Source of the DNA: a phage | DNA length: 43,091 bases | Assembly (NCBI GenBank): GCA_021146305.1 | Contig: GCA_021146305.1_4336.1 | Strand: one strand, 5' to 3' | Shown here: positions 9,117 through 40,247 of the stretch, one piece after another | How the letters are laid out: every line of letters begins with the position of its first letter | How positions within the stretch are numbered: the first letter of the stretch is position 1 | The notes under the pieces: model-generated | Databases searched by the model: none | The model's input: only the letters and a program-made list of their open reading frames with translations | What the model was told of the DNA's origin: nothing | Program-made: the position numbers and the translations under genes

Positions 9117-9146
9117 GAAAAAGGCCCCGAAAGGGGCCTTAGTTTT
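9117..9146. terminator. bidirectional intrinsic terminator
   Basis: aaGGCCCC-gaaa-GGGGCCtt hairpin (8-bp GC stem, 9121-9140) with A-run upstream and T-run downstream, between convergent genes 8562-9116 (+) and 9145-10317 (-). Confidence 0.8.
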
Positions 9147-13185: not shown

Positions 13186-13212
13186 AAATGAAAAGAGGGA
13201 CCGAAGTCCCTC
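13186..13212 (-). terminator. intrinsic terminator after the capsid gene
   Basis: Hairpin AGAGGGAC-cgaa-GTCCCTCT (13193-13212) followed on the minus strand by a T-run (plus-strand A-run 13188-13192). Confidence 0.7.
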
Positions 13213-13229
13213 TCGATTATAGCTTAACC

Positions 13230-15329: not shown

Positions 15330-15561
15330 GGGTGATTACCTCTGATTTCGTCTTGCCTTCGTTGTCAGCGGCTGCGGCCTTTGATTCATCCTGCTGCTGC
15401 CGTTGTGTTTTCTTCGCTAACTCAGCCTGTGCTTTCTGCTGCTGCTGAGAAACTAGATTCGCCCGGCCTTCGTTCCAGCCGCTGCGGTACTGATAGATGC
15501 CGTGTGCGTAAGCCAGGATGATGAAACATGCTCCCGCTACGACAGTTGCTTTAAGATTCAT
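15175..15561 (-). CDS. i-spanin (Rz-like)
   Basis: 128 aa; N-terminal transmembrane helix (VVAGACFIILAYA), Gln-rich coiled-coil periplasmic region; overlapping partner lipoprotein gene. Confidence 0.65.
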   Translation of the reverse strand: MNLKATVVAGACFIILAYAHGIYQYRSGWNEGRANLVSQQQQKAQAELAKKTQRQQQDESKAAAADNEGKTKSEVITREVVKYIKTPGRSVCTFDPERVQLKYRAVANANSIPGYDDDAAAVQTGPAK

Positions 15562-15671: not shown

Positions 15672-15826
15672 CAATAGAGTATGGCCCTTCCGAACGCGTC
15701 AGCGTAACTACACTCAGGACTTACGTCCCGCTCCGTTACCTGCCCGCGCCGCGGTCGCTTGTTCATACTTCACAAGCTCAGGTGGAGCTTAGCACATTTT
15801 TAGTGAAAAGTCAACTATTCGAATAG
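15672..15826 (-). promoter_or_regulatory. conserved promoter + structured leader module, copy 1
   Basis: Leftward promoter TTGACT (plus coords 15809-15814), 17-bp spacer, TAAGCT (15786-15791), with palindrome CTATTC-GAATAG (15815-15826) just upstream; about 110-bp conserved leader 15672-15778 shared with copy 2, including stem ggac-ttac-gtcc (15717-15728). Confidence 0.55.
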
Positions 15827-15880
15827 TTTATTCCAACATTTACAATTGAGTGGAATAACCGGAATACATAAACAAATAGT

Positions 15881-16451: not shown

Positions 16452-16474
16452 AAAGCCCCGTAAGGGGCCTTTTA
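16452..16474. terminator. bidirectional intrinsic terminator
   Basis: GCCCC-gtaa-GGGGC hairpin with A-run upstream and T-run downstream; closes the plus-strand island and the convergent gene 16475-16936. Confidence 0.6.
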
Positions 16475-18776: not shown

Positions 18777-18803
18777 ACTAAGGCCCCTAGCGGGGCCTTT
18801 CTA
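18777..18803. terminator. bidirectional intrinsic terminator
   Basis: AGGCCCC-tagc-GGGGCCT hairpin (18781-18798) flanked by A-run and T-run. Confidence 0.7.
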
Positions 18804-26335: not shown

Positions 26336-26356
26336 GTAAATTTTATTGGTGTTTGT

Positions 26357-26446
26357 ATTGTCGCATTTCCTGCAATAGTCGCTTGGATTGTTGCATCTCC
26401 TGCAATAGTCGCTTGGATTGTTGCGTTTGGTGAAAGTGTCGCTTTT
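26357..26446. repeat. 30-bp tandem direct repeats (2 near-identical copies + 1 degenerate)
   Basis: attgtcgcatttcctgcaatagtcgcttgg (26357-26386), attgttgcatctcctgcaatagtcgcttgg (26387-26416), degenerate third copy 26417-26446. Confidence 0.8.
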
Positions 26447-26805: not shown

Positions 26806-26993
26806 TAACGGCAACCTCCCTCAGAGTCGTCGGCACGAGCATCATGATTAGATGCCGTTCTCTCCCTCACTTCGACCATCCTTCCTACCTCTGCGGCGTA
26901 ATACACATACAGCTTTATTGCGTAATCTTTATTACTTGTCGTCTCTGAGATAACCCCGTCGACGTATACGTCATAAATTAATTCTCCCATCAC
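26805..26993 (-). CDS. hypothetical protein
   Basis: 62 aa, acidic C-terminus; ATGA overlap with the upstream gene. Confidence 0.45.
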   Translation of the reverse strand: MMGELIYDVYVDGVISETTSNKDYAIKLYVYYAAEVGRMVEVRERTASNHDARADDSEGGCR

Positions 26994-27175
26994 TTCGCCC
27001 CTTTGAATTTAAAATTGTTGCCGATGAGTTCTAAATCACATTTACGGAGTAACCCTTTGCCGTAACCTGCGACGCTATTAACCTCCACAAAACCGAACCA
27101 CATTAGCTTCGATTCTATTATCGTAAATAAATTGCCTGTAAATTTATTCCGCACCAATTGACCCTTCTTAAACAT
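26990..27175 (-). CDS. hypothetical protein, first gene of the leftward early operon
   Basis: 61 aa from ATG 27173-27175 with AAGGAG RBS; about 30 bp downstream of the promoter at 27211-27239. Confidence 0.5.
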   Translation of the reverse strand: MFKKGQLVRNKFTGNLFTIIESKLMWFGFVEVNSVAGYGKGLLRKCDLELIGNNFKFKGAK

Positions 27176-27210
27176 AACCCTCACTCCTTATGTCTCGTTT
27201 CGATAAGTGA

Positions 27211-27239
27211 ATAGTAGCCTATTATGTTGGGGTGTGCAA
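27211..27239 (-). promoter_or_regulatory. sigma70-like promoter with operator palindrome (leftward early)
   Basis: Minus-strand TTGCAC (plus 27234-27239), 17-bp spacer, TACTAT (27211-27216); palindrome GAATAG-tagc-CTATTA at 27209-27224. Confidence 0.55.
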
Positions 27240-27281
27240 GAGATTAGTTACGTTGCCGTTGTGATTCTTTTGTTTCTTTAA

Positions 27282-27337
27282 AGAGTACGCAACGCAGTGG
27301 GTGGGCGTTAGCCCACCCCAGCGGAGTGAAGTACTCT
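27282..27337. other. nested stem-loop in the early-left leader
   Basis: Outer inverted repeat AGAGTAC (27282-27288) / GTACTCT (27331-27337) enclosing inner hairpin GGGTGGGC-gtta-GCCCACCC (27299-27318). Confidence 0.45.
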
Positions 27338-27404
27338 CTACCTTGCTTACGGCAACTATAGAAACTTTTAATTATCAGTGACTTGAGTATTTAGGCGGGA
27401 TTAA

Positions 27405-27548
27405 CAATAGACTTTGGCCCTTCCGAAAGCGCCAGCGGAACTACACTCAAGTGCCTAATGGCACGCGTTGCGTTCCCTGCCGCTCCGCGGTCGCTTGCGA
27501 TATCTCACAAGCTCAGTGAAGCTTAGCATATTTTTAAGTAAAAGTCAA
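27405..27548 (-). promoter_or_regulatory. conserved promoter + structured leader module, copy 2
   Basis: Leftward promoter TTGACT (plus 27543-27548), 17-bp spacer, TAAGCT (27520-27525); leader 27405-27512 aligns with copy 1; stem gtgcc-taat-ggcac (27451-27464) replaces ggac-ttac-gtcc of copy 1. Confidence 0.55.
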
Positions 27549-27595
27549 TACCAGAAGCATCTTTTGTATCTTAGTAACTTTGTGTGGTGTTTTGG

Positions 27596-27624
27596 TTGCT
27601 TTTACATTCACGCTATCCTATACT
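27596..27624 (+). promoter_or_regulatory. sigma70-like promoter (rightward early)
   Basis: TTGCTT (27596-27601), 17-bp spacer, TATACT (27619-27624); about 30 bp upstream of ATG 27656. Confidence 0.5.
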
Positions 27625-27655
27625 CGTTTTCACCAAACAAACAGGAGATATAAAA

Positions 27656-27838
27656 ATGCAGCATTACATGACACAGAATGAAGTGGCTGAACGTATCGGG
27701 GTGACACGTCAAACCATTAATAACTGGTTGCGCAGCGGTAAATTCCCTGATTGCTGTATTAAGGTTATGGGTCGCCGTTTACCAGGAACATTTGACCGTA
27801 ATAAAGTTGAAGCATGGATTAAGGAGAACGTGAAATGA
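27656..27838 (+). CDS. HTH DNA-binding protein (AlpA / excisionase-like)
   Basis: 61 aa from ATG 27656 with AGGAGA RBS; helix-turn-helix VAERIGVTRQTINNWLRSG. Confidence 0.55.
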   Translation: MQHYMTQNEVAERIGVTRQTINNWLRSGKFPDCCIKVMGRRLPGTFDRNKVEAWIKENVK

Positions 27839-28047
27839 TTGGGCGTATGGGTTGTTACTTTGAAAACTGTAAAGTTAAATACTGGTTTAAGTTTGCGTCG
27901 GAAATTACTGACAGCGGATTCTATGCGGAAATATGTAAGCCTAATCATTTGTCGGAACCGACACGCATTATTAAGATGTCAGCAGACGTGTTAAGTAAAT
28001 GCCGCTTCTATGATTCCGAGCACGCGTGGTTTTCTGGTTGTAAATAA
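27835..28047 (+). CDS. hypothetical Cys-rich protein
   Basis: 70 aa; ATGA coupling to the HTH gene. Confidence 0.45.
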   Translation: MIGRMGCYFENCKVKYWFKFASEITDSGFYAEICKPNHLSEPTRIIKMSADVLSKCRFYDSEHAWFSGCK

Positions 28048-28115
28048 AAGAAACCCCAACGCCAGAACGTCGGGGCTAAAGTACAAATCATCAAAGTAAG
28101 CATAAGGATTATACA

Positions 28116-28244
28116 ATGACAAAGTTAATAGTTCCACAGCTACGCCGCCAGAAACACGGCGCTGATTTCTTCGCACCGGTAAAGATGAACCGCGCAATGC
28201 GCCGTATGCAGGAAGCCTTAGAACGTGCGGAGAAAAAGAAATGA
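28116..28244 (+). CDS. small basic protein
   Basis: 42 aa (MTKLIVPQLRRQKHGADFFAPVKMNRAMRRMQEALERAEKKK); AAGGA RBS; stop overlaps the ATG of the next gene. Confidence 0.35.
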   Translation: MTKLIVPQLRRQKHGADFFAPVKMNRAMRRMQEALERAEKKK

Positions 28245-30493
28245 ATATTGTTTTTGCAACGCTGCGTAACACATTCGATAAAAACCCTGTAGCGCGTGAA
28301 ATGCCGCTGGAGCAGTTCGTAGAGTATGTCTGCGATACATCGAAGCGTTTATCCGTGGATCCGTCGTGGTCTAAGGAAGAGTACGACGCTGCCAAGATTA
28401 AGCAGAAAGCTATTGCGCCTGTTGGTGGTCGCCGTAAGAACGCTATTCTTGAAGACAGTGTGGTTAAGTTCGACTTTGACCATCTCAACCGTACTCAGTA
28501 CCGCGACCTGACCCGCAAATTCAAGAACGCTCCGTTCTTCAATATTCTGCACACAACGGCGTCGCATCAGCACGCGTGTAAAAACGGTGATTACGCCTTT
28601 CGCGTTCTGGTTCCGGCTCGCACTCCGTTTAACTCTAACGACGCGTGGATGGTGCAACGTGCTATTTGTGCAGAGTTAGAAATAGATGAAGCCTTGCGTG
28701 ACCACTGCACGGAAGACGGCAACCGCCTTATCTATCTGCCACATAGAGAGTCAAAGATAACGGTTACAGAAGGGCGTGTTATCCGTGCCGAGCGGTACAT
28801 CAAGAAAGCCGAAGAGATGGGGTTGAGTAAACGTGAAGTTAAGACACTTGCCGCCGATGAGTATGGGCTTAACGCTGATATAGCGCATTTCTGCGAAGCC
28901 GAGCTTGGCCTTGACGCTTTATCTTCCGGGCGCGGGTACGAAGTCCCATGCCCTAACGAACATCTGCATACAGGCAAAGGCTCCACAAGCATCATGCTTG
29001 ATGGTAAAGAAGTGCGCTTTGTGTGCCAGCATACAAACAACGGCGCTTGCACCGAGCTTAACCGCCGACAGCATTTGGCCCTGCGTATGTGCGGCCTGCC
29101 AGACGAGCTTAACGTAGACAAGCAACCTATCAGTATTAACAGCATTCGTGCGGCTCTGCCTGATTTACCGGATGAAGAGATTGAAGAACTGCACCGCACA
29201 GAGAACGAGGAGCCTGTAACTTGCACGCTGGAAGACCTTGAAGAAGAGGACGAGTTACCAGAACCGGTAAAGGCTGATTTCGTCGTAGAAGGGTACATGC
29301 CGTCGGATTGTATCTGGGATATTGTCGGGGAATCCGGCACGTACAAATCATTCTATACGCTGGGGATGATGTACCTGAGCGCCACCGGGTACCGGTTTGC
29401 GGGGGCTGACACCCAACGTTGCCACCATTTCTATATTGACGGCGAGGGTGGTGCAGCTACACGAACACGTATTGATGCACTCGCGGCTAAATATGGCGAG
29501 GAAGGTAAAGATTATGTACATGTCATCGATATGGGCGAAATACTCGCTACGCATGGTGATAAAAAAATTCCAGCTCTAATCCGCAGGATGCGCGAAACCG
29601 CAGGGGATGAACCTATTGGCATGGTTGCCTTCGACACCCTTAACCAGACGCTGGCCCTGACGATTGATAAGTTCGACGAGAACAGTTCATCAACGGCAAT
29701 CGGTATGGGTAAAGTTATCGCCATCCTGAAAGAAGTGCGCGATGCAACTAAAGCCGCTGTCGGTGTCGTTCACCATACTCCGAAGGGCGGAAAGAAAGCC
29801 CGCGGCAGTGGAGCATTGTATGCGGGTGTCGACGTGGAACTGACAATCGAACGCGCTACCGACCGTCAGATAAACGTATACCACTCTAAATTTAAGCACG
29901 GTCCGCAACAGAAGACGGTTGGCATGGTACTGGAGTCTGTACAGTTCCGTGAAGCACCGCCGCCGAAAGAGTACCGCGCGGTTGAGTTCCTCGGTAGCAC
30001 AGAGGAATACGGCACAATAGTAAACCTTGACCTGCCTGAGCCGCACAAGGCGCTTGTATTGATGCCGTGGGGTTTCGAGCCGTTCAAAACTGACGAGGAG
30101 AAAGAGCGGGAAGAAGGGTTGACGAAAGAAGGTAAAGAAAATGTACGTAAAACCGTAGAGAACGCCGTCAACAGTTCGGAGGCCACGATACTCGCGGCGT
30201 TTGAACTGGCGGAAGGAACCTACAACGGCAACGAAGGCATCACGGTATCCGCAGCGAATAAGCTCGCGCAGTCTGGCCCCAACGCAAAGGCGTTTAACTC
30301 CAAAGAAGCCATAGAACGCGGGAAGATTAAGAAAATGGTTGAGGCTGGGTATCTTGTTCCGGGTACTGACGAAAACAATCAGATAATCCCAGGCCGTTAC
30401 AGACTGAACACCATGATAACAGATAACAAGATTCCGAAGACAATATACGAACCGAATGAAATGCTGACAGTGACCGAGGAGGATTTGGAATGA
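28241..30493 (+). CDS. replication protein: primase-like N-terminal region + RecA/DnaB-type P-loop ATPase
   Basis: 750 aa; Cys/His cluster (CPNEHLH...C..H...C) suggesting a zinc-binding primase-like domain; central Walker A GESGTYKS; acidic C-terminal region. Confidence 0.55.
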   Translation: MNIVFATLRNTFDKNPVAREMPLEQFVEYVCDTSKRLSVDPSWSKEEYDAAKIKQKAIAPVGGRRKNAILEDSVVKFDFDHLNRTQYRDLTRKFKNAPFFNILHTTASHQHACKNGDYAFRVLVPARTPFNSNDAWMVQRAICAELEIDEALRDHCTEDGNRLIYLPHRESKITVTEGRVIRAERYIKKAEEMGLSKREVKTLAADEYGLNADIAHFCEAELGLDALSSGRGYEVPCPNEHLHTGKGSTSIMLDGKEVRFVCQHTNNGACTELNRRQHLALRMCGLPDELNVDKQPISINSIRAALPDLPDEEIEELHRTENEEPVTCTLEDLEEEDELPEPVKADFVVEGYMPSDCIWDIVGESGTYKSFYTLGMMYLSATGYRFAGADTQRCHHFYIDGEGGAATRTRIDALAAKYGEEGKDYVHVIDMGEILATHGDKKIPALIRRMRETAGDEPIGMVAFDTLNQTLALTIDKFDENSSSTAIGMGKVIAILKEVRDATKAAVGVVHHTPKGGKKARGSGALYAGVDVELTIERATDRQINVYHSKFKHGPQQKTVGMVLESVQFREAPPPKEYRAVEFLGSTEEYGTIVNLDLPEPHKALVLMPWGFEPFKTDEEKEREEGLTKEGKENVRKTVENAVNSSEATILAAFELAEGTYNGNEGITVSAANKLAQSGPNAKAFNSKEAIERGKIKKMVEAGYLVPGTDENNQIIPGRYRLNTMITDNKIPKTIYEPNEMLTVTEEDLE

Positions 30494-30804: not shown

Positions 30805-30827
30805 AAAGAAAGGGGCTTTAAGCCCCT
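30803..30827. terminator. intrinsic terminator (mainly minus strand)
   Basis: Hairpin AGGGGCT-tta-AGCCCCT (30811-30827) with A-run 30802-30810 on the plus strand (T-run on the minus strand); overlaps the last codons of the XRE gene. Confidence 0.5.
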
Positions 30828-31033
30828 TCACCTAACGCCAGCCACTTGGCGTCTACTTCCAGAACTTCCGCCAGTTTGAACAGCGTTGCCGGGCGGACGT
30901 CCTGAGTTACTCCAAGTGCCAGTTGGTTAATCGCGCCCTGGGAAACGCCGGTCAGGGCCGCCAAACGGCGCTGGGAGATGCCGAGTTCTTTACGGCGTTG
31001 TTCTACACGGATACCTAGTTCAGATGGTTGCAT
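30818..31033 (-). CDS. XRE-family (Cro/CI-type) HTH transcriptional regulator
   Basis: 71 aa; HTH ISQRRLAALTGVSQGAINQLALG; strong AAGGAG RBS; divergently oriented inside the rightward replication operon, with two operator palindromes just upstream. Confidence 0.75.
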   Translation of the reverse strand: MQPSELGIRVEQRRKELGISQRRLAALTGVSQGAINQLALGVTQDVRPATLFKLAEVLEVDAKWLALGEGA

Positions 31034-40216: not shown

Positions 40217-40247
40217 AGAAAAGGCCCCGTTTGGGGCCTTAGTTTAT
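40217..40247. terminator. bidirectional intrinsic terminator
   Basis: AAGGCCCC-gttt-GGGGCCTT (40221-40240) then T-rich tract; separates the rightward replication operon from the convergent tailspike gene. Confidence 0.85.

Follow-up and report, generated by a model that had tools for sequence, protein, structure and literature searches.

The 43,091-nucleotide (nt) phage contig GCA_021146305.1_4336.1 (GenBank assembly GCA_021146305.1), the whole of which is called the window below, carries two copies of a 144-bp unit in which a promoter precedes a structured RNA. This unit, designated here as the module, is an undescribed and strongly constrained promoter-plus-RNA unit of the genera Kagunavirus and Jerseyvirus, and it encodes a structured non-coding RNA. 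Copy 1 (~15672-15815) and copy 2 (27405-27548) are the only copies in the window. From its placement in the genomes compared, copy 1 is the universal copy, and it appears to form the 5′ leader of the late operon, which contains the spanin, scaffold, major capsid and tail genes. The RNA is tentatively considered to be a cis-acting leader that controls transcription elongation or termination, either autonomously or with the assistance of a factor. The parts of the two copies are listed below.

27548-27543, minus strand: -35 element TTGACT of copy 2; the similarity between the two copies begins exactly here
27528-27520, minus strand: extended -10 element TGcTAAGCT of copy 2, 17 nt from the -35 (TG at 27528-27527, TAAGCT at 27525-27520)
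27514 or 27513, minus strand: predicted start of copy 2, from its position relative to the promoter
27405-27514, minus strand: structured RNA of copy 2 (class B), ~110 nt; covariance match 27518-27405, 92.3 bits, E ~6e-24; fold of -49.3 kcal/mol
27493-27512, minus strand: P1 hairpin of copy 2, GCUUGU/GCAAGC, six pairs, 100% paired
27423-27490, minus strand: P2-P3, long irregular hairpin of copy 2 with covarying stems
27451-27464, minus strand: P3, apical hairpin GUGCC-auua-GGCAC of copy 2, whose pairing is kept across classes
15786-15814, minus strand: promoter of copy 1, TTGACT-17-TGcTAAGCT
15672-15779, minus strand: structured RNA of copy 1 (class A), 108 nt; covariance match of 134 bits
15606-15671, minus strand: conserved leader spacer of copy 1, with 26 variants listed
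15605-15586, minus strand: intrinsic terminator GCCCCGC-uuuaug-GCGGGGC followed by UUUACUUAU, called by the terminator scan

A covariance model of the RNA gave two matches only in the window, with 134 bits (E ~1e-35) for copy 1 and 92 bits (E ~1e-23) for copy 2. The pairwise alignment of the minus strands extends the similarity from the -35 hexamer through CUAUUG (CTATTG), and the repeat search had picked up the first 45 nt of this repeat. The first-pass annotation of the window had described 27405-27548 as a second copy of a leader module with its own leftward promoter and a structured leader-type RNA; the alignment, the covariance model and the conservation of the promoter bear this out, and the coordinates it flagged for promoter elements, hairpin arms and early promoters all agree with the sequence.

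The promoter TTGACT-17-TGnTAAGCT is retained in 30 of the 31 distinct upstream sequences. The variable base n is C, A or G and its neighbours are fixed, while the discriminator is variable and is followed by an invariant CUGA. Both RNA copies begin ~7 nt past the conserved -10 element. A consensus scan called none of the three promoters considered here (the module promoter and the leftward and rightward early promoters that flank copy 2), each having fewer than 9 of 12 matches, and the -10 of the module agrees with the consensus at only 3 of 6 positions. Thus, the promoter assignments rest on conservation and not on consensus strength. Judged in this way, the module promoter is a predicted sigma-70-type (host-type) promoter with an extended -10, and transcription is expected to start there. 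A palindrome spans the -10 and the predicted start in both copies (AAGCTC-N5-GAGCTT at 15774-15790 and AAGCT-N6-AGCTT at 27509-27524); it could be a protein site, or a hairpin competing with P1 when transcription arrives from upstream. The region 5′ of the copy-1 promoter (15815-15866) includes a CTATTCGAATAG palindrome adjoining the -35 and an inverted repeat GTTATTCCA...TGGAATAAC, the latter also kept in the Cornellvirus SP-031 and in phiEap-2.

Single-sequence folds of all classes agree on P1 (GCUUGU/ACAAGC) followed by a long irregular hairpin. At the base of P2, CCG[C]GG-x-GCG is paired with CGC-y-UU(C/U)GG; CAG/CUG, a 5-bp helix (GGAAC/GUUCC in copy 2) and P3 follow. The internal loops of P2-P3 in copy 2 are GCAACGC and UUGAGUGUA. 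The covariance model was made from 26 distinct sequences, and its 73 matches (40 distinct) were then re-aligned to the model. In this alignment, standard pairs occupy 91.8% of the cells, compared with 30-47% when the partners are slid by 1-3 columns. Both-sided changes were counted in 58 cells versus 16 in shuffles, and 0 of 500 shuffles reached 58. The x-y pair (36-102) is C-G in 25 sequences, U-A in 10 and A-U in 3, and the pair 47-91 in P2c is U-A in 22, A-U in 5 and G-C in 3. The sequence of P3 is wholly different among the classes with its pairing retained, and four of its five pairs show both-sided changes. The variation in P1 is limited to a change from U-A to U-G, with no double compensatory change.

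The same pairs indicate the strand. The opposite strand would pair in only 81.4% of the cells, owing to 133 G-U cells, and two G-U pairs in P2-P3 are invariant. Because these G-U cells weaken antisense pairing, the RNA is read leftward, as the promoter predicts. The classes differ in length by 1-4 nt, and no minus-strand open reading frame (ORF) of at least 40 amino acids lies across 27240-27550; a coding reading is therefore excluded. Short ORFs annotated as 'hypothetical protein' over the module in deposited genomes (loci L035, L036, L039 and others; Snoke_056 and UTI89UKE1_063) are probably mis-annotations, since the RNA covaries and the length differences break the frame. Whichever function applies to the RNA, the module is an annotatable feature in a place where several records have such spurious ORFs.

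Several further elements were considered and rejected. An outer helix P0 (5′ ..GCCU with the 3′-tail AGGC), seen in class D folds, would have its 5′ arm before the predicted start, in the variable discriminator. A pseudoknot of the P1 loop AGUAUG with a tail CAUACU pairs perfectly in the main sequence of class A, but all four bases occur at the tail position among the variants. A hammerhead-like CUGA..GA core and a tRNA T-loop (UUCGGAA), both noticed by eye, do not fit the conserved positions. A small ORF past the GGAAGGG box would yield, from UUG starts, 3, 10 or 1 codons depending on the class, and none of these is conserved.

With blastn, the module unit was found in 181 phage records, which are limited to phages of Escherichia, Salmonella, Shigella or Raoultella; no similarity was detected in 5,426 complete E. 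coli genomes, which define, at blastn sensitivity, the extent of its absence outside phages. Pattern scans of IMG/VR together with seven GenBank loci yielded 60 instances, 31-32 of them distinct, which fall into about seven sequence classes. The pattern applied to genome and metagenome contigs, GACCGCGG N48-76 TTYGGRAGGSYC, was too loose and gave chance matches in GC-rich genomes; among the matches listed, 7 of 240 are true, all on Kagunavirus-like contigs. The covariance model detects one copy each in K1G and in the Jerseyvirus SP-101, always at the copy-1 site. A search against Rfam 15 returned zero matches at gathering thresholds for the whole window, K1G, SP-101 and SP-031, and permissive scans of both copies (E up to 10) returned only noise (E >0.8) and no riboswitch. 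The portions available of the literature on non-coding RNAs, transcriptomes, promoters or terminators of Kagunavirus, Guernseyvirinae and Jerseyvirinae, and of that on put-like antitermination, do not mention the module RNA.

Copy 1 has the same position and orientation, before the genes for the Rz-like spanin, the scaffold and the major capsid protein, in the window, K1G and SP-101. The order at this site is the terminator ending the upstream operon (16471-16452), the module promoter, the 108-nt RNA, the 66-nt spacer and the leader terminator at 15605-15586. The ribosome-binding site of the spanin gene lies no more than ~10 nt past this terminator, and its ATG is at 15561. The terminator has one compensatory variant (GCCCUGC/GCAGGGC) and a variable loop. 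Between the module and the spanin gene, a scan found no further leftward promoter-like site, and the late mRNA must therefore start with the module RNA; because the terminator separates this RNA from the ribosome-binding site, the late mRNA must also read through it. On this arrangement of predicted elements, read-through of the leader terminator would have to be obligatory for late expression. Another strong terminator (13214-13193, minus strand) directly follows the major capsid gene.

The whole 250-nt leader is a peak of conservation, with 95-98% identity between genera versus 80-84% for the adjoining genes. The identity between the window and SP-101 is as follows.

Module RNA: 98.1%
Copy-1 spacer: 97.0%
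Terminator and ribosome-binding site: 95.5%
Spanin gene: 80.1%
Scaffold gene: 81.6%
Capsid gene: 83.8%

Within the RNA, conservation is higher in the unpaired internal loops and flanks than in the stems. A conserved unit at the head of the late operon is thus defined, under a constraint above that of the capsid gene and outside Rfam. The Guernseyvirinae, including the K1G-like Kagunavirus and the SETP3-like Jerseyvirus, are common phages of E. coli and Salmonella with use in therapy, biocontrol and synthetic biology. In the sources as far as they were available, the literature search found nothing published on the timing of their late genes.

Copy 2 lies in a different setting, back to back with the rightward early promoter and ~310 bp upstream of a leftward promoter that bears an operator-like palindrome. 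The features around it are as follows.

27596-27624, plus strand: rightward early promoter TTGCTT-17-TATACT, 5′ of the HTH_17 gene, assigned from sequence
27239-27211, minus strand: leftward early promoter TTGCAC-17-TACTAT, with the palindrome AATAGTAGCCTATT at 27210-27223 over the -10
27338-27404, minus strand: spacer between module and hairpin, containing ACUGAUAAUUAAAAGUUUCUAUAG, a box also found after copy 1
27279-27340, minus strand: nested stem-loop, full stem, with its core at 27282-27337

The nested stem-loop has outer arms AGAGTAC/GTACTCT (27282-27288 and 27331-27337) and an inner hairpin GGGTGGGC-gtta-GCCCACCC (27299-27318). The first-pass annotation had reported this hairpin, and it is real: it folds at -34.2 kcal/mol (z = -4.81), and 0 of 200 shuffles fold as well. 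It does not have the form of an intrinsic terminator, in which a U-tract immediately follows a GC-rich stem-loop; its run of U is consumed in the stem, AAGAAACAAAAG comes next, and the terminator scan does not call it. The view that the hairpin belongs with the module was not upheld. K1G and the window share, at 92.7% identity, the stretch that starts at CACTGATAATT and takes in the nested hairpin and the leftward promoter; where the window has the module, K1G has a different promoter (TTGACA-16-TAAAAT) and ~200 nt of unrelated non-coding sequence. Since K1G shares the block of hairpin and promoter but has no module at this site, the hairpin is part of that block.

Different hairpins occupy this place in other relatives. 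SP-101 has another promoter and a non-coding stretch ending in a canonical terminator (GGGCAGG...CCUGCCC-UUUAG), located at the same distance from the leftward promoter as the hairpin of the window. In Kagunaviruses whose module is of class C or D, this position is occupied by a (CTCA)n tract and a GGUGCC-uucg-GGCACC hairpin. The position of a hairpin before the leftward promoter is thus conserved while its sequence is replaced, with three unrelated sequences. By this comparison, the nested hairpin resembles an insulator or terminator that keeps upstream transcription out of the operator-controlled promoter. The (CTCA)n tract after class C/D modules (loci L035-L040, at ~920-960) is expanded in Golestan (L038); it is C-rich and G-poor, resembles a Rho-utilisation site and is slippage-prone.

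By the same genome comparison, copy 2 is an accessory copy, dispensable within the subfamily. The inserts at the copy-2 site of K1G (L061, 36680-36900) and SP-101 (L062, 35095-35400) are ~200-300 nt long and end in a hairpin. P2c and P3 vary in the copy-2 RNA (classes B-E), and copy 1 is almost invariant. In the metagenomic locus L047 (2171-2480), the copy-1 site has a class-E core, flanked by the CTATTCGAATAG box and the terminator of the spanin gene; therefore, cores exchange between the sites and are interchangeable there. Across these sequences, the copy-2 site behaves like an exchangeable slot for non-coding transcripts. The first-pass annotation had also suggested that two tandem leftward promoters and a structured leader provide layered control of early-left transcription. 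The two promoters are present on paper, but early-left control is not the core role of the module, because copy 2 is dispensable and the informative copy 1 heads the late structural operon.

In the proposed mechanism, the nascent leader RNA would act in cis on the polymerase that made it, either alone, like put of HK022, EAR of Bacillus and canT of Tn916, or by loading a phage or host factor, like nut of lambda. The polymerase would then pass the terminator of the leader as well as those inside the long late operon. The transcript of copy 2 would run into the nested hairpin before the operator-controlled early-left promoter; it may stop there, or, with a modified polymerase, may go on, irrespective of the operator, into the early-left, lysis and packaging genes. 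Every antitermination step is predicted from sequence. A cis role in elongation is favoured because the fold and its loops are selected more strongly than the capsid protein and because read-through of the leader terminator appears obligatory. There is precedent in the cis-acting antiterminator RNAs put, EAR, canT and conAn2 (PMC9378689, PMC11658703).

Several points weigh against a cis-acting elongation leader. The independent covariation events amount to only ~5-7 sequence classes, and the alignment behind the covariation figures was fitted to the model. The RNA belongs to no Rfam family, and its covariance model has no match in the immunity region of HK022. For copy 2, the hairpin has no U-tract and the scan found no strong minus-strand internal terminator in 27.2-16.5 kb, so the need for antitermination there is weak; in K1G and Jerseyvirus, from their gene order, this leftward operon would be expressed in the absence of copy 2. 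Phages lacking any antitermination system also commonly have a terminator after the capsid gene. On the other side, in favour of a cis-acting RNA, Pfam and PHROGs revealed no Q- or N-like protein among 10 small early ORFs, most of which have no assigned function. A stronger proposal, which is unlikely as a whole, is that the module represents a new class of RNA-only processive antiterminator, unlike put in sequence and fold, which binds the E. coli/Salmonella polymerase and switches on the late genes of Guernseyvirinae, with the copy-2 site as a slot for such RNAs. If the polymerase is modified in this way, the module would join put as a second enterobacterial case of RNA-only antitermination, and in a host amenable to genetics.

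The put RNAs promote read-through of terminators in cis without phage proteins, via the zinc-binding domain of the polymerase beta′ subunit. The module resembles putL and putR of HK022 in having two paralogous copies per genome and a nascent structured RNA just past a sigma-70 promoter, and likewise in heading a long terminator-containing operon and in folding into two stems, which in put have functionally important bulges (PMC9378689). The positional arrangement is also shared: the two copies are promoter-proximal, and the terminators at 15605-15586, 13214-13193 and 9140-9121 are downstream. No phage antiterminator protein was recognized for the module either. The put RNA is, however, ~70 nt with the conserved residues U28, G35, G45 and A64, while the module RNA is ~110 nt. 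Furthermore, put occurs in lambdoid phages, whereas the module occurs in virulent Guernseyvirinae and its universal copy heads late, not early, genes. Membership in the put family was rejected: putL was located in HK022, and the module model gave no match (E up to 10) in a 10-kb region, a comparison made in one direction with no put model built.

The layout of copy 1 (promoter, 108-nt RNA, 66-nt spacer, terminator, spanin gene) is the same as that of the late leader of lambda. In PR′-qut-6S RNA-tR′, a promoter, a ~200-nt leader and a terminator stand just before the lysis and morphogenesis genes, and Q acts through a DNA site and a sigma-dependent pause. To our knowledge, the 6S leader of lambda is not constrained by covariation, unlike the module RNA, whose fold itself is under selection. 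No Q family was found with Pfam and PHROGs in the scan, which covered those 10 ORFs only. The module is also comparable with nutL and nutR of lambda, as two copies of an RNA signal in divergent or long operon leaders, and the P1 hairpin with its conserved single-stranded flanks could be a protein-loading site. The nut sites differ in being ~30 nt, smaller than the module RNA, and in consisting of boxA (CGCUCUUA) and a boxB hairpin, with an arginine-rich N protein. No boxB-like hairpin was found in the module, and no N-like family among the 10 early ORFs scanned. A boxA-like ACUCUUUAA in the 3′ arm of the copy-2 hairpin was rejected, as it is absent from class C/D loci and looks like a chance match. 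The 3′ arm of the nested hairpin (27279-27295, minus strand) reads GUACUCUUUAAAGAAACAA, which resembles the rrn boxA GCUCUUUAACAA; this resemblance, missing where other hairpins are present, is probably chance.

EAR, canT and conAn2 are structured RNAs in long operons of mobile elements or surface polysaccharides that bypass terminators, including an insulating terminator beside a regulated promoter (PMC11658703). EAR (Bacillus), canT (Tn916) and conAn2 (pLS20) are from Gram-positive systems, and their sequences are unrelated to the module.

As the main rival reading, it is conceivable, although somewhat unlikely, that each copy produces a discrete, abundant and trans-acting small RNA of ~195 nt (copy 1) or ~235 nt (copy 2), measured from promoter to hairpin, which might for instance titrate a host factor or defence system as a decoy, or regulate the polymerase. 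Both copies have their own strong-looking promoter and a stable hairpin ~65-75 nt past the structured part. The differing cassettes of K1G and Jerseyvirus at the copy-2 site, and the at least five sequence classes of copy 2, fit an exchangeable accessory locus, and the hairpin kept just upstream of the early-left promoter with three unrelated sequences suggests that upstream transcripts are meant to stop. If the RNA acts in trans, the variable copy-2 slot would be a place to seek RNA-based counter-defence. At copy 1, however, the terminator is ~10 nt from the late ribosome-binding site with no space for a promoter, so that the transcript must double as late mRNA; the copy-2 hairpin lacks a U-tail, and the lack of blastn similarity in the 5,426 complete E. 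coli genomes leaves no obvious host-RNA mimic by sequence. The location of the RNA in the 5′ untranslated region of a highly expressed operon, with P1 beginning a few nucleotides from the predicted 5′ end, would also suit a passive leader with no effect on polymerase, which protects from 5′-end-dependent decay, provides an RNase III or RNase E site, or controls translation of the spanin. With its long interrupted duplex, the nested hairpin after copy 2 is also of the type cut by RNase III. This explanation is distinctly unlikely, as the loops and flanks are more conserved than the stems and the 250-nt leader is 95-98% identical across genera, which exceeds the needs of a protective hairpin; moreover, duplication carried the unit, its promoter included, to a site without an adjacent coding sequence.

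A role at the level of DNA, as a replication origin, a primer promoter or a protein-binding cluster, is very improbable. The cumulative GC skew has its minimum at 27-28 kb, where the GC content is also lowest (0.44), the primase-helicase gene (28241-30493) adjoins, and the palindrome AAGCT(C)-N5/6-(G)AGCTT covers the -10 and start. The skew minimum coincides, however, with the switch of the coding strand, and this switch accounts for it with no need of an origin. Matches to the DnaA box do not exceed chance and none is nearby, no iterons are present in 27240-27650, and the compensatory changes including G-U pairs indicate selection on RNA. The module is also missing from the copy-2 site in K1G and Jerseyvirus and is duplicated amid late genes. 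The suggestion of the first-pass annotation that the copy-2 region might be a replication origin found no support, its span containing neither iterons nor DnaA boxes. Least probable of all, and scarcely to be expected, is a riboswitch or attenuator responding to a small molecule or to temperature and toggling the terminator by alternative pairing. A conserved structured RNA 5′ of a terminator in a 5′ untranslated region would fit such a device, but a ~65-nt spacer separates the fold from the terminator, and inspection revealed no alternative pairing of more than 5 bp that would join the 3′ part of the fold to the terminator's 5′ arm. Between classes, the hairpins that follow copy 2 are wholly different while the RNA core is unchanged, and no Rfam riboswitch matched at E up to 10.

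Three tandem 30-bp repeats (TTGGATTGTTGCATCTCCTGCAATAGTCGC) at 26353-26444 are the sole tandem repeat, just upstream of a second operator-bearing leftward promoter (26339-26302). From their sequence they look iteron-like, and would be a better candidate than the module for an origin or a regulator site.

The Cornellvirus SP-031 and phiEap-2 were examined as members of the module family: the covariance model misses them, and single-sequence folds are no better than those of shuffles. SP-031 (L063, 25470-25580) and phiEap-2 (L305, 330-450) have a homologous promoter (TGaTAACCT) followed by a different leader. This Cornellvirus-type leader shares with the module GACCGCGCGGAAGGG(U/C)C and a GUAAC/GUUAC + GUAA hairpin; in phiEap-2, a CGUAAC/GUUACG helix surrounds a GUAA-capped hairpin. 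The Cornellvirus-type leaders may be divergent relatives of the module RNA.

With megablast, 121 phage records match 26900-28300, mostly Escherichia Kagunavirus and relatives in Guernseyvirinae. The window is a Kagunavirus-like genome of this subfamily, and its gene map was transferred from the annotated relatives AV104, K1G and the Jerseyvirus SP-101. The first minus-strand block extends from ~27184 to ~16475 and includes small early-left genes, holins and endolysin, terminase and portal. The second starts from 15561 and includes the Rz-like spanin, scaffold, major capsid and tail genes. On the plus strand, the HTH_17 regulator, the primase-helicase and replication genes follow from 27656. 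The remaining features are listed below.

27656-27838, plus strand: HTH_17 gene (Pfam HTH_17, 1.6e-08)
28241-30493, plus strand: primase-helicase gene, adjoining the copy-2 region
13193-13214, minus strand: terminator
9121-9140, 16452-16471, 18780-18799 and 40219-40245: hairpins of the family described below
6664, 15897, 26306, 27210, 31108, 33657 and 37230: exact sites of AATAG-N4-CTATT
15806, 23912, 26504 and 31064: one-mismatch sites of AATAG-N4-CTATT

A AAGGCCCC...GGGGCCTT hairpin family, bidirectional in appearance, is located between convergent gene blocks. In the transcriptome of the Kagunavirus K1B4, the helix-turn-helix-domain gene vB_Eco_K1B4_008 is one of four early genes (PMC12645636), and it is presumably equivalent to the HTH_17 gene at 27656-27838. 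That study gives gene-wise classes only, and intergenic RNA is not covered (PMC12645636).

The palindrome AATAG-N4-CTATT has 11 sites in the window versus 1.08 expected, and it overlaps the -10, the spacer or the -35 depending on the promoter. The one-mismatch site at 15806-15819 overlaps the -35 of the copy-1 module promoter. The palindrome looks like the putative operator of one regulator across most phage promoters, including the copy-1 module promoter at its -35. It may be bound by the XRE protein (30821-31033, minus strand) or by the HTH_17 protein (27656-27838).

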